DNA of 64,000 nt, taken from contig CAXHJY010000035.1 of the NCBI GenBank assembly GCA_964016885.1, positions 1 through 64,000 on the forward strand. Reading direction: 5' to 3'. The position numbers and the translations under genes were made by a program. Numbering within the stretch: position 1 is the stretch's first letter; every line of letters begins with the position of its first letter. The DNA is from Eledone cirrhosa (lineage: Eukaryota). Below the pieces are notes generated by a model. That model did no database searches, was not told the origin of the DNA, and saw nothing but the letters and a program-made list of their open reading frames with translations. Shown here one piece after another: positions 6,658 to 63,044 of the stretch.

Positions 6658-6716
6658 TTTTATCTGATGAAAACGTAGTGAAACACCATTGTACCTTTGA
6701 AATATGTATAATAAAA
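6658..6716 (+). ncRNA. Hammerhead motif, B/C superfamily
   Basis: ttttat-CTGATGA-aaa c gta...tac c ttt-GAAA-T-ATGT-ATA-ataaaa; preceded by small hairpin 6571-6625. Confidence 0.72.
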
Positions 6717-6832
6717 TATGTACTTTGGTTATGAGAATATTTCTCATTTATTAATATTTTGAATAATATTATATATATATATATATCAATGATATTAAAT
6801 AAATGGAAACTATATTTATAAAACCATATTTA

Positions 6833-6889
6833 TTCTATTATATATATTTCAAGGGTACCAAAACTTTGGTACGCTCTCATCAGATAAAA
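6833..6889 (-). ncRNA. Hammerhead motif, family C (element ~6786-6925)
   Basis: Reverse complement reads ttttat-CTGATGA-gag c gtaccaaagttttggtac c ctt-GAAA-T-ATAT-ATA-atagaa. Confidence 0.78.
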
Positions 6890-9094
6890 TACAAAGTTTG
6901 TTTTATAAATATTGACATATCCAAAAAGGAAATCTTAACGGATCAAGTTTTTCCGGCTCAATTGGAACACTCGTCGTTGTAACCGCATTCGCGGTTCAGG
7001 TTCTTCGCGGATTTTTCTTTTCGTCATATATGTCTGTGAATTTTGATTCAGTTTGTATTATTAGTTTTATTATTAATATTATCTGTTTATTTTTATTTTT
7101 GTGTGTTCGCCTTCTCCAATCTTCTAATAGTTTTCTATCAAGATATGTGGAGCTGTAGTTATATATATATTCATACATATACAACACATGTACACATATA
7201 TATACATACAGACAGGCAGACAAATATATATTTTTCCGTGTATGATTGTGTGTTTATATATATATATATATATATATATATATATATATATATATATATA
7301 TATATATATATATATATATATATGTATATACATATATATATATATGTATATATACATAGAGGTATATATTTATATATATATATATATATATATATATATA
7401 TATATATATATGTATATACATATATATATATATGTATATATACATAGAGGTATATATTTATATATATATATATATATATATATATATATATATATATATA
7501 TATATATATATATATATATATATATGTATATACATATATATATATAAATATATATATACACGTTTATATTTATGCATATATGTGGATTTTAGTCTTCAAA
7601 TTTATTATTATTACTATATATATATATATATATATATATATATATATATATATATATATGTGTGTGTGTGTGTGTGTTTGTGTGTGTGTATATATGTATA
7701 CATATATATATATACATTTATATATATATATATATTTTTATGCTTTGGGAGGGTCATGTTGCCAATAACGAAATATATATATATATACGCTTATGTTTTA
7801 TCTATATATGTCTAACTGTCTAACTCTTCGTAATTCCGATATCTCTTCGATACTTCATCTACACACACACATACACACACACACACACACACACACACAC
7901 ACACACATATATATGTGTGTGTATATATACACACATATACTTACACGCATATTTCCTTTGTTATCGAATTCATTTTTATATAATTTCATTTATATAACAA
8001 TGCATTAAGACATATTTATATAACTATATAACTATATATATATGTGTGTGTGTCCGTGTATATACATATATATACATATATACGTATATGTTTCTTTTCG
8101 CTTTCTCCAGTAAAACTTTTCGAATTAACCAGACATCGTAACAAGCTGAAGGCGAATAGAAAGTTGGAAAAATGAGATTTTTCTCCTCACCATATTATTT
8201 CATTTATCATTAATTTGTAGAAAATATATATACATATACATACATAGAGACAAACAGAAAGAGATATATATATATATATATATTTATATATATATTTATA
8301 TATATATATATATATATATATATTTATATATATATTTATATATATATATATATATATATATATATATATATATATATATATATATATGTGTGTATCTTTC
8401 TGTTTGTCTCTATGTATGTATATGTATATATATATACACACACGCATACACCCGCCTTTATATAAATATATATATACATTTATGTATATATATATATATA
8501 TATATATATGTGTGTGTATATATATATATATATATATATATGTGTGTGTGTGTGTGTGTGTGTGTGTATACATACATATTTATATATATATATATATATA
8601 TATTTGTATGTATCTGTATGGACATATAAACGCATATATTTGTGTGTATATATATATATATATATATATATATATATATATATATATATATATATATTAT
8701 TCTCTAATATTCTTTATATAATAAAAGAGATATATATATATATATATATATATATACAGACACACACACACATACATATACACTCACACAAACACTCACA
8801 GACAAAGTGGTGGTGGGGAGGAATACAATCTCCAAGAGAGATAGTGAAAGATATTGTTTTTTCAGAGGAAGAAATAAAAACGCCAACGGTTGAGATGGGA
8901 ATGAGATAAAGTTTTAAAACATAAATTTCCTGTTGAAATTAAGGTGAGACTTTGTTAACCAATTCATTGTTCAGCCGCTCATTGTTTTTCAAACATACTA
9001 CCTATGATTTTGCAATCATTTTAAAGCTGATCTGTGAGACGTAGCTTAACCTAAGTTCATATATATAATTACAAGAAAGGTTTTTATTTAGATA

Positions 9095-9512
9095 TTGGTT
9101 TCTTATATAGGCACAACGCCAGCAATTTTGGGGGAAGGGAAAGTCGATTAAATCGACCCCAGTGCGTGACTGGTGTCACGCATTGGGTCACGCACGGGGT
9201 CGGTAAAATAAAGTACCAGTCACGCACTGGGGTCGATTTAATCGCCCCCCCCCCCCCACAAAAAAAAAAAAACTGCTGGCCTTCTGCCCATATAAGGTTG
9301 ACTTTGGCTTTCATCCTTACGGGGTCGATAAAATAAAGTACCAGTAATGTACTGGGTATTTGCTGGCCTTGTGCCTAACGTAGAAACAATTATTTTATCT
9401 GAGTTCAAATCCCGCCGAGGTTAACTTTGCCTGTCATCCTTACGGGGTCGATAAAATAAAGTACCAGTAATGTACTGGGTAATTGCTGGCCTTGTGCCTA
9501 ACGTAGAAACAA
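9095..9512. mobile_element. Rearranged cluster of Nin/Deu-SINE fragments with an internal inversion
   Basis: Same SINE core and tail in both orientations; inverted gtcgattaaatcgaccccagtgcgtgactggt. Confidence 0.7.
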
Positions 9513-10617
9513 TTTTTTTTTTTTTTTTTCAAATTTTTGGTTGTCAAAATTATGGTGCATCTTCGGTGCCGGGAAATACGGTAGCTCTCTTTCTAAAATG
9601 GACTGTTACTTTGAATATCGATCTCGAACACACGATAAGATGATGTCGACTTCAGCCGGATTTTAACACGGAGCACAGAAAGTCAGAACGAATTTAACCA
9701 TAAAATATTTTTATCCGACGTTTCAACGGGATATTTCGCCGCCATTGCGTCACTCGTCAGTTTCTATAGACAAAAGAGAGAGATTATGTCGCCTATTGAT
9801 ACTTAACTGAGAAGAGCAATGATAGATTTCTGTTATCGATCTCTTCCCCTCCCTCTCTCGTCTTTTAACGGACCTTCTTATATATTTATACATACATACA
9901 TACATACATACATACATACATATATATATATATATATATATATATATATATATATATAATATCACTGCTTGCTACTGTTGAATATGTTTATCGTTGTTAA
10001 TATTCACTGAGCGATAGATCGATAAATCGATATATTCAATGATTGAATGAAATGATTCGCTATTTTATTGACTTGTTTCAATCGGTTGCTCGGTTGCTTG
10101 ACTGGTTTTCGTTGGTTTATGTCCACTGGATAGTCGGATGGTTGGATGGTTGGATGGTTGGATGGTTGGTTGAATGGCTGGCTTGTTTGATTGGATGGTT
10201 CCATGGTTGGTGGACGGTTGTTTGCCTAGTTGGAAGCCCTGTTGGTAGGTTAGTTGCATGGATGGTGGGTTGGTTGACTGGCTGGTTGGATGGATGGTTG
10301 GTTGGGTGGTTGAATGGTTGGTTGATGGTTTAGTTCGTTGATTTGCATATTTACATGCTTACGTGTGTGTGTGTGTGTGTGTGTGTGTGTGTGTATACAT
10401 ATATATGTATATATATATATTTATACATATATATATATATATACAATATCGATACATATATATATATATATATACATATATGTATATATATATATATATA
10501 TATGTATCTATATTGTATATATATATATATATATATATATATATATATATATATATATATATATATATATATATATATATATATGTGTGTGTGTGTGTGT
10601 GTGTGTGTGTGTGTATA

Positions 10618-60778: not shown

Positions 60779-61630
60779 TCTATATATATAAAACTGTGGT
60801 TGTCTGTCTGTCTATCGATTTTTGGCACACACCTCCTCTTAGAATCTCTCACGGAATTGCACCGAAATTGCTATACTTGTACATTGAGCCCTAGTGAAGA
60901 CATCGGAAAAAAAAAATTTCAAATTGACCCACCCTATGTGACGAAATCGAATATAATGTATCGATTTTTGAGCGTAAGTTATCAGTTATTTCCTTTTGTT
61001 CTGTTTACATTGAGCGTCTTACGTAAAAAATTACGGCTTTCTCAGCGTTTAAAAAATATTGACCTGCAAAATTCATCAGTTCGAACACTAAGCTTCCGTT
61101 TTGCTTCATTTCCATTTAAAAGCATTTTAAAACAATATTTTTACTTGAAAACAAGTCTATTTAAAGACTACGTAAAACAAGCAAATATTTCGTCGTTAGG
61201 CGTGCAGACAGACAGTCGTGCAGAGAGGTGATATAGGCGTGCAGACAGACAGTCGTGCAGAGAGGTGATATAGGCGTGCAGACAGACAGTCGTGCAGAGA
61301 GGTGATATAGGCGTGCAGACAGACATAACTGATAATTTGGTTACGCTAATGTTTTTCTCTGCGTTGCAGTGTTTACATTTTCGATCTTTGTTAATAAATA
61401 ACCAGTGCAGTTTCTATCCCCACCATCCTCTTTTGTTATAACATTCGGGTTATCGTTATGTTTTCTTAACTTCATAAGGCATATTGTTGGTTGAGGGAAT
61501 ATTAATCAAAAACACCACATGCAAGTCTGCACAGTAGACACTACAGTTTTTAAGCCAAAAAAGAAACTTAACATTGTAACTTTAACACAGCTACTGAGCG
61601 ACCCCGAGCAACGCCGGGCTTTACTGCTAG
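60779..61630 (+). mobile_element. Non-autonomous Helitron with an internal 37-bp tandem repeat (61198-61323)
   Basis: A|TCTATATATATAAAA start, (GTCT)n near the 5' end, 3' cccgagcaacgccggg hairpin then CTAG|T. Confidence 0.78.
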
Positions 61631-61659
61631 TTTATTTATAAAACTGCTTATATATTGTA

Positions 61660-61721
61660 TTTTATCTGAGGAAGGCATGCCATATTTTTAATATGGTATC
61701 CCTGAAATATCTATAATGAAA
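61660..61721 (+). ncRNA. Hammerhead motif, family C (N7=G)
   Basis: ttttat-CTGAGGA-agg c atgccatatt ttt aatatggtat c cct-GAAA-T-ATCT-ATA-atgaaa. Confidence 0.75.
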
Positions 61722-62696
61722 TAGATATGGTTTTATAAATATAGTTTCCATTTGTTTAATATCGTATATATATTTATATATATATATATATATATATATA
61801 TATATATATATATATATATATATATATATATATATATATATATATATATATATATATATAGTTATATATATATATATATATATAGTTATATATATAGTTA
61901 TATATATATATATATATATATAGTTATATATATATATATATATATATATATATATATATATATATATATATATATATATATTGTCTCAAATTTCGAATTC
62001 ACCGTCAAAACGGGGGTTACCTCCCTTGGAGAAAACCACGTGTCTATAGCGAAATTTACTACTAGAACACACCCGCTGAGGCTATAGAACGCAAAACTTG
62101 TTGAAGTAAATCCTGCAAGCGGAATTAGTCGATCTCGGATTTACAGAAACCTAGCGTGAATGTTGTATGTTATATGTGATGTATATCGTATGCTATACGA
62201 TATGCGTTATGTGTTGCATTCGGTCTCCGCGCGATGGTCCAGGTCAGTCAAAAATCTTTTCCTGGGTCCAGTCTTTTTCGTTGCTATGGCAATGCGGCTG
62301 GACTGCCGATATCTATATTTGATTTGCAAAGCTGTCTAAACGTATTGTTATAACTCTGGGGTATTATTCTCCATCGAGTGCTAAAGCTACATTCCGAATT
62401 CGCATTCGTTAGCTTAGCCGCAGCCTAAAGCTTCGTTAATGCTGTACTAAAATTTGTATATATATATATATATATAACGAAGGAAATGTGGTAAGGAACC
62501 AGGTGGACCATAACGCACCAAAGTACTCAATACTTAGGGTAGTAGAGTGGGTAATAGGAACGAGTAGGACCCCGACGGCTGAGCTCAAGCTGTTTCGACG
62601 GCTAATTCTGGACTAAATATTTAGTCCAGAATTAGCCGTCGAAACGGCTTGAGCTCAGCCGTCGGGGTCCTACTCGTTCCTATATATATATATATG

Positions 62697-63044
62697 TAAA
62701 AGTTCTATTTAAATTGTTGGGATACAACAAGCAAATATTTTTATAACTGATATAAAGCACTCAACAAATATTTGGAGTAAAAATACGATATTAACAAATA
62801 GAAACTATATTTATAAAACCATATTTATTTCATTATACATATTTCAAGGACACCAAGTTAAATTATGGAGCTTCCAACAGAAATGGTTGCATTTTTTAAG
62901 GGTATGTCAATATTTATTTATAAAACTGATCTATATTATATTTTGTCTGATGAAAGCACACCATAATTTAACTTGGTACCCTTGAAATATGTATAATGAA
63001 ATAAATATGGTTTTATAAATATAGTTTCTATTTGTTAATATCGT
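62697..63044. mobile_element. Family C fold-back element; hammerhead at 62941-63001 (+)
   Basis: ttttgt-CTGATGA-aag c acacca...tggtac c ctt-GAAA-T-ATGT-ATA-atgaaa; inverted arm ~62783-62868. Confidence 0.75.

Follow-up and report, generated by a model that had tools for sequence, protein, structure and literature searches.

What keeps one base pair of a ribozyme helix open while the pairs around it change? The question is raised by a 64,000-nucleotide stretch of Eledone cirrhosa DNA (GCA_964016885.1, contig CAXHJY010000035.1, positions 1 to 64,000; hereafter the window), in which scanning both strands for CTGANGA and GAAA reveals 15 type I hammerhead motifs. These share a common build: stem I, core, a stem II of 26-36 nucleotides (nt), GAAA, a 6-nt insert, U-H, and the returning strand of stem I (I′), with a short, palindromic stem III. 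The conserved core (C3 U4 G5 A6 N7 G8 A9 and G12 A13 A14 A15.1) is complete in 15/15 copies, and the N-U-H cleavage triplet, accompanied by A15.1-U16.1, reads AUA in 14 of them; the CUA of the copy at 11435 reflects decay, and its sister copies have AUA. Judged by their sequence, the motifs are likely self-cutting. In every copy the fourth pair of stem II is open, with C-C in 11 copies and C-T (C-U) in the 4 copies of family A.

Compensatory change in stem II

The initial annotation described a covariation series in hammerheads of three families, A, B, and C. Every coordinate that it cited is correct and the cited copies are real, although it did not cite the member at 11427-11492, whose stem I differs. 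Most cores read CTGATGA, the others being CTGAAGA at 23293-23299 (minus) and CTGAGGA at 54391, 54290 (minus), and 61666, and only N7 differs among the cited cores, as claimed. All four bases occur at N7 in these ribozymes, and N7 is variable in the hammerhead consensus CUGANGAH (PMC4209133 Fig. S3; this and the other PMC papers cited here were available as excerpts); its variation is a general hammerhead property and nothing new. The base of stem II reads AAA/TTT at 6671, GAG/CTT at 6851-6876 (minus), AAG/CTT at 33693 and 62954, AGG/CCT at 23262-23292 (minus) and 61673, and GGA/TCT at 30429. That these bases vary in pairs is borne out by compensatory pairs between lineages, but pair 1 is sometimes open and GAG/CTT differs from AAG/CTT by a one-sided change. 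Irregular first pairs in the window are U-U at 16954 and 11435, A-C at 54391/54290, and G-U at 6883 and 30422.

Selection acts on replicating master elements and the genomic copies decay neutrally; we therefore set the covariation test at the level of lineages. Filtering on stems I and III only, with stem II unconstrained, gave 358 distinct matches, from which 30 multicopy clusters were kept. The 30-lineage count excludes 44 clusters with a single member and one cluster of three that consists of internal deletions, and in 55 copies fetched for a mutation at 10.4 or 11.4 the column concerned was masked. As several clusters are closely related sisters, the count of independent lineages is closer to 20. 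Pairs 1-8 of stem II are closed in 24, 30, 30, 0, 28, 28, 29, and 27 of the 30, respectively, with compensatory changes between lineages at pairs 2, 3, 5, 6, and 7. Pair 3, for example, occurs as U-A (10), A-U (10), G-C (7), C-G (2), and U-G (1), and pair 6 includes U-A and C-G in 14 lineages each. The closing pair, 10.1-11.1, is paired in 24/30 lineages and is G-C in 10/30; active ribozymes with U-U here are known (PMC3088659).

Several measures agree on this helix. Mutual information is maximal on the diagonal, pairs 1 and 4 excepted. Among real representatives 90.4% of cells are paired versus 69.8% after shuffling, and the covariation score is 0.737 versus 0.289; none of 500 shuffles reaches any of the five covariation measures, a count that is not a p-value because the shuffle ignores relatedness. 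Slid registers score far below (0.08-0.17), and RNAalifold, run independently, returned 3 base pairs (bp), a gap at pair 4, and 3 bp (covariation term -4.44). The three helices covary and stem I is open-ended, although the hit filter selected in part for stems I and III, but not for stem II. G-U cells outnumber A-C cells by 21 to 4, which points to the sense RNA as the selected strand. The two claims of the initial annotation that depended on a larger alignment, namely that stem II covaries and that selection acts on RNA structure, are thus supported, the latter for master elements.

Two other structures were considered and rejected. A register with a bulged base (an extra base, then G10.1-C11.1) fails because slid registers pair in 28-51% of cells versus 90%, and an antisense or DNA-level structure is disfavoured by the same excess of G-U over A-C.

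Stem I is less regular: its pairs 6-8 are closed in 20, 25, and 17 of the 30 lineages, and its length runs from 5 to 8 or more bp. The third position of its 5′ strand is U in 29/30 lineages, with A or G as the partner, a one-sided conservation outside the core.

The open fourth pair

Pair 4 is open in 30/30 lineages (C-C in 23, U-C in 3, C-A in 2, and C-U in 2), with C on at least one side in all of them. A mismatch that is always C-C, or C-T in family A, had been annotated; this describes all 15 window copies, but the wider set adds C-A in two lineages and U-C in three. On the endonuclease tree, C-A arose twice. The mismatch is kept across reverse transcriptases (RTs) that are 50-64% identical, with values of 50-55% (about 52%) in one comparison, and across five unrelated types of stem I, and it always lies 3 bp from the core, while the distal hairpin ranges from 20 to 62 nt. 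We also note an oversized stem II domain of 61-62 nt in L456-L475, L237, and L411-L412, which retains a pyrimidine mismatch at pair 4. Among 22 strong matches from 39 stretches at arbitrary coordinates (386 kb), aligned by fitting to the lineage-derived model, pair 4 is open in 20 and the other pairs are closed in 19-22.

Could such a mismatch simply be inherited and neutral, with too few changes among lineages so far to alter pair 4? The lineages are related, closing pair 4 requires a transversion, and closed-pair and mutated copies do get mobilised. However, on a tree built from sequence outside stem II, parsimony assigns only 1 + 3 changes to pair 4, against a mean of 6.6 + 6.0 at pairs 2, 3, 5, 6, and 7, and the neighbouring constrained columns changed 4-10 times each (Poisson p of 0.005 for pair 4 combined and 0.01 for 10.4). 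Over the same span, deep divergence arose in stem I, loop II, and the proteins. We therefore regard neutrality as very improbable.

A constrained mismatch might act through helix stability alone, as a generic brake that merely weakens stem II and prevents cutting ahead of reverse transcription, whatever its bases. Pairs 2-3 have a mean predicted pairing of 0.45-0.46, which doubles to 0.87-0.89 when pair 4 is closed in silico, a change that stabilises stem II by about 5 kcal/mol, in energies that ignore the tertiary structure of the core. Pair 1 is weak too, with its minority of G-C, and the template would have to span the cut site. Base identity nevertheless appears to matter: only C-C, U-C, C-A, and C-U are seen, never A-A, G-A, or G-G, always at pair 4, and the mismatch is kept alike in lineages whose stems differ greatly in strength. 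A generic brake is accordingly a rather improbable account.

We also considered whether the partner of the mismatch is RNA. It could be a tertiary docking site or a noncanonical pair (possibly protonated, C-C+ or C-A+) that packs stem II on stem I, speeds cleavage, and replaces the canonical contact between loops I and II. Stem I-stem II contacts are needed for canonical hammerhead activity (PMC3088659), and the mismatch is fixed where loop II starts in canonical 4-bp stems, with a variable hairpin beyond it. C-C or C-A occurs in 25/30 lineages, and the near-invariant U of stem I would also suit docking. Yet the variable stem I has no fixed loop and, across the 30 lineages, no covarying partner for a stem I-loop II contact; no conserved G partner of the mismatch occurs in 12 upstream and 26 downstream columns; and in one subfamily C-U changed to C-A with stem I unchanged. 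Docking therefore appears unlikely. The constant C at a fixed position, the variable length of stem I, and the lack of a covarying RNA partner instead favour a protein-recognition site that gates folding.

The initial annotation had further suggested that the mismatch defines a subclass. Descriptively this is supported: pair 4 is paired in 0/30 lineages and has 4 changes versus a mean of 12.6 at neighbouring pairs. Monophyly is another matter. The endonuclease tree is compatible with it, whereas the RT tree gives weak support (0.58) to grouping the ACTGC family with one that has no mismatch, and so disagrees with the endonuclease tree on its place; both alignments were projected on one query.

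Host elements and a proposed protein-gated model

By sequence criteria, the window hammerheads, whose host element the initial annotation did not name, lie at the 3′ ends of truncated Penelope-like elements (PLEs) of the Hydra clade, derived from several coding families. Full elements with RT and endonuclease (EN), sought by fetching widely spaced ribozyme pairs, were found elsewhere in the genome, outside the window. They form ribozyme-open reading frame (ORF)-ribozyme tandem units of 3,334 nt (L110), 3,940 nt (L109), and 4,097 nt (L407), in each of which pseudo-long terminal repeats (pLTRs) flank the RT-EN ORF; in L110 the start codon lies about 270 nt downstream of stem II. The 775-residue frame of L109 (P0001) contains RW, DKT, YRDD, CxCX5C, a GIY-YIG-like stretch, CxxC, and CxH. 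The set RW/DKT/CxCX5C/CxxC/CxH recurs in other ORFs, with a variable third residue of RWK. RW, DKT, CxCX5C, CxxC/CxH in place of CCHH, plus a GIY-YIG-type domain at the C terminus are the diagnostic set of the Hydra clade (PMC8557442), which includes the octopus element Hydra-1_Obim (PMC8557442). The L109 protein resembles Hydra-1_Obim in a comparison by eye, as were all comparisons with published PLE proteins; Pfam detected no domain in 7 ORFs. That likeness and the microsatellite load would suit an octopus-like animal; the window takes up the first 64 kb of a 69.7-kb contig, and the genome measures 3.0 Gb. Long open Hydra-clade ORFs of 775-830 codons occur at L109:2153-4477(-), L108:1629-4091(+), and L113:3693-6182(+), and copies of the family A ORF are 96-99% identical in the RT core, which suggests recent activity.

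Ribozyme and protein appear to travel together. In most stem II subfamilies, tblastn finds a Hydra-type ORF on the strand of the ribozyme, ending 0.4-1.9 kb upstream of it, and in an endonuclease tree of 58 fragments the ribozyme subfamilies group with their own protein lineage, although two of the endonuclease-ribozyme links (L028 and L382) look like nested insertions. In 12/15 window copies a (TA)n tract follows 38-60 nt past the cut site; the remaining 3, all inverted arms, continue into a tail some 85 nt long. Published PLEs show such (TA)n targets as well as inverted truncated partners and, optionally, tails (PMC8557442). Retrozymes were considered and rejected: the copies, which occur singly or inverted, are 3′ remnants of coding elements, and coding elements lie upstream. 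No noncoding head-to-tail hammerhead array of few-hundred-nt units occurs among the best 150 of 173 TRF matches.

The copies are numerous and decaying. An exact pattern that leaves stem II free has 76,877 matches genome-wide and its reversal none; longer-stem (897) and shorter-stem (4,217) patterns partly overlap these, and sister families defined by stem I add 10,754 (ACTGC), 2,930 (GCTGT), and 1,029 (CRTAT), for about 95,000 pattern matches in all. The sample at arbitrary coordinates extrapolates roughly to 170,000. Catalytic C3 is lost in 1,555 copies (2.0%) and C10.4 in 2,919 (3.8%), much of the latter in CpG context or by slippage. A purine occupies 11.4 in 1,067 copies; among 100 of these that were listed, about 22 (by eye) have a scattered G and no closed-pair subfamily was seen. 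A metagenome scan matched 118 stretches, none with a convincing stem I, stem II, and palindrome, and these were treated as chance.

How might a protein act on such a ribozyme? With about as much confidence as doubt, we propose that these type I hammerhead motifs in the 3′ pLTR of Hydra-clade PLEs would cut only as dimers, and that the pair-4 cytosine mismatch would be a recognition point: binding by the element's own protein would relieve the marginal state in which the mismatch holds the first 3 bp of stem II. In a tandem transcript, two ribozymes may share a stem III formed by the 8-nt palindrome A15.1-N6-U16.1, in the dimer mode known for PLE hammerheads. The insert has a self-complementary central dinucleotide in 28/30 representatives, and for 8/11 insert types the full self-duplex is predicted at -2.6 to -11.2 kcal/mol and the monomer hairpin at +2.4 to +4.7. 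Reverse transcription would start 38-60 nt (or about 130 nt, at the tail end) 3′ of the cut site. Since the RT must then copy through that site, the template would have to be uncut or religated, which favours a slow, protein-gated ribozyme; genomic copies with an intact cut site and the element 3′ end downstream likewise imply a template that was uncut or religated there. In 27/30 representatives (e.g., at 2967-2972 and 61720-61725) a hexamer, AAUAAA or AUUAAA, spans the cut site or begins at most 20 nt past it, so that cleavage would part the upstream RNA from the poly(A) signal. Lineages that kept the structure would have continued to amplify, while inserted copies decayed neutrally. In the PLE of Anolis, the hammerhead cuts only when protein is added, uncut RNA is the main insertion substrate, and the ribozyme is dispensable for insertion in vitro (PMC11167929).

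Several observations weigh against this protein-gated model, beyond the reduced number of independent lineages and the simplified folding energies noted above. Column 11.4 by itself is not significantly slow (p 0.15), and although none of the only 4 lineage-level changes at pair 4 closes the pair, this has a probability of about 0.2 at equal rates and is not significant. One inverted insertion (L039) carries G-C at pair 4 in both arms, and a closed-pair RNA can therefore be copied once. Other inverted pairs share a changed C10.4 or a changed C3; neither the mismatch nor catalysis is thus needed for one round. The mismatch is missing from hammerheads in this genome whose stem III insert is 4, 7, or 14 nt long, and no ORF could be tied to the GCTGT or CRTAT families. 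In Anolis the stretch bound by the protein was assigned to the ORF's first 172 nt and, in the excerpt available, was not shown to be stem II (PMC11167929). Finally, by eye, the 26 Hydra rows of File S2 in PMC8557442 have no internal mismatch at pair 4, unlike the families here. A stronger proposal goes further, to a natural protein-gated ribozyme that forms a distinct subclass (3 bp, cytosine mismatch, extended hairpin, and 6-nt palindromic stem III) represented by more than 30 lineages and some 100,000 copies, and in it the mismatch would be the RT-endonuclease binding site that switches it on. We offer this tentatively and think it somewhat unlikely to hold in full.

Window copies, relatives, and significance

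The window copies and their partners are collected in Table 1. A covariance model built from the 30 lineage representatives recovered 14/15 copies at 57-72 bits, together with four weak matches, and at default filters missed the copy at 11427..11492. That copy belongs to a multicopy family (305 candidates, 40 scored) with C-C in 9/9 parsed copies. In the window, Rfam reports no hammerhead at its gathering threshold, and none up to an E value of 10 over 6600-6950, where two copies lie; an Rfam E-value scan of 2000-38000 gave microsatellite noise and a tRNA pair only, among the best 150 of 448 matches.

Table 1. Hammerhead copies and associated features in the window (N17, position as noted)
Feature	Position	Strand	Pairs 1-3 of stem II	Pair 4	Remarks
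Type I hammerhead, family A	2715..2785	-	A-U, A-U, A-U	C-U 2767/2738	TGCGCA stem III; inverted arm, long tail
Type I hammerhead, family A	2905..2975	+		Mismatch 2923/2952	N17 2967; (TA)n 38 nt downstream
Inverted pair of 5′-truncated family A PLE 3′ ends	2557..3021	.			Between (TA)n tracts; 88.6% identity to full element L110 5′ end
Hammerhead	6656..6718	+	A-U, A-U, A-U	C-C 6674/6695	Then G-C, U-A, A-U; N17 6710
Hammerhead	6831..6891	-	G-U, A-U, G-C	C-C 6873/6854	N17 6839
Hammerhead, separate multicopy family	11427..11492	+	U-U, G-U, U-A	C-C 11445/11469	Short, different stem I; sister-copy stem III TGATCA
Hammerhead	16946..17006	+	U-U, A-U, G-C	C-C 16964/16983	
Hammerhead, core CTGAAGA	23242..23307	-	A-U, G-C, G-C	C-C 23289/23265	
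Hammerhead	30414..30480	+	G-U, G-C, A-U	C-C 30432/30457	
Hammerhead	33678..33743	+	A-U, A-U, G-C	C-C 33696/33720	
Hammerhead, family A	34674..34744	-		C-U 34726/34697	Inverted arm
Hammerhead, family A	34863..34933	+		C-U 34881/34910	
Hammerhead, core CTGAGGA	54233..54298	-	A-C, G-C, G-C	C-C 54280/54256	Inverted arm
Hammerhead, core CTGAGGA	54383..54448	+	A-C, G-C, G-C	C-C 54401/54425	
Decayed family A copy	55922..55973	+			5′ half of core lost
Hammerhead, core CTGAGGA	61658..61723	+	A-U, G-C, G-C	C-C 61676/61700	Stem III insert one base off palindrome (decay)
Truncated inverted partner of the 62947 copy	62826..62927	-			Ribozyme 3′ half only
Hammerhead	62939..63003	+	A-U, A-U, G-C	C-C 62957/62980	Pairs 5 and 6 broken (decayed copy)

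The window also holds other type I hammerhead families without the mismatch, with stem III inserts of 14, 4, or 5 nt and cores starting at 3278(-), 3284(+), 12011(-), 23817(+), 24190(-), 22321(+), 28248(+), and 29855(-); in L118, a Hydra-type ORF precedes the type with a 14-nt insert by 438 nt. A repeat family with GAAA ahead of CTGAYGA occurs at 5811(+), 27419(+), 51948(-), 55670(+), and 63151(-). A near-identical tRNA-like inverted pair, 34166-34237(-) and 34304-34375(+), scores 44.5 and 42.4 bits and is probably a tRNA-derived repeat. Satellites include a 9.5-kb CAAC satellite at 39360-48870 and, where the contig begins, a GT-rich array (1-1970); at 52269-53641 a 69-bp unit recurs about 20 times at 99% identity.

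Hammerheads of related build have been described. The short-stem-III hammerheads of Lunse, Weinberg and Breaker 2017 are reportedly associated with PLEs, have a short palindromic stem III, and cleave as dimers. The motifs reported here share many features with those of Hydra-clade PLEs (Craig et al. 2021, PMC8557442): they are type I, lie near the 3′ end of a PLE with a C-terminal endonuclease and RW/DKT/CxCX5C, and show (TA)n insertion, an inverted 5′-truncated partner, an optional tail, and U-U at pair 1. The published rows differ in having 3-8 uninterrupted pairs in stem II and mostly a 7-nt stem III insert, where ours has 6 nt, and the published elements are generally under 3 kb, a tendency that is not diagnostic of the clade and that the 3.3-4.1 kb units here exceed (PMC8557442). 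With the min-HHR (Cervera and de la Pena 2014, PMC4209133) they share placement in the pLTR, a palindromic helix III with a predicted dimer, a long helix II, a variable N7, within-genome compensatory changes, and opposite-strand pairs 100-700 bp apart, but they lack both min-HHR hallmarks, a conserved G10.1-C11.1 and one additional nucleotide separating A9 from 10.1. Of 56 motifs compared by eye in Fig. S3 of PMC4209133, 2 have a pair-4 mismatch (C-A in S. purpuratus 1 and U-U in C. sinensis 2) and none is C-C; the excerpt of that paper does not describe a conserved mismatch. The Poseidon element PAc of Anolis (Frangieh et al. 2024, PMC11167929) likewise carries its hammerhead in the pLTR, with internal RT start sites downstream that give rise to a tail, but it belongs to another PLE clade, its ORF starts inside stem II rather than downstream of it, and the excerpt does not mention a stem II mismatch. 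We found no description of a conserved C-C mismatch in hammerhead stem II in a literature search from which Lunse et al. 2017 and most subscription papers were absent. The ribozyme class, its host clade, and N7 variation are already known, and the conserved stem II mismatch that defines the family set appears to be the new aspect.

These observations bear on the role of hammerheads in PLEs, where cutting is slow, one ribozyme depends on its protein, and insertion in vitro proceeds without cutting. Rfam and descriptors that assume paired stems miss about 100,000 motifs in this one genome. One invariant position outside the core, a compensatory series in about 30 lineages, and near-intact cognate ORFs together provide a direct mutational handle. 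If the protein-gated model is true, these elements would carry a ribozyme with an identifiable allosteric site.

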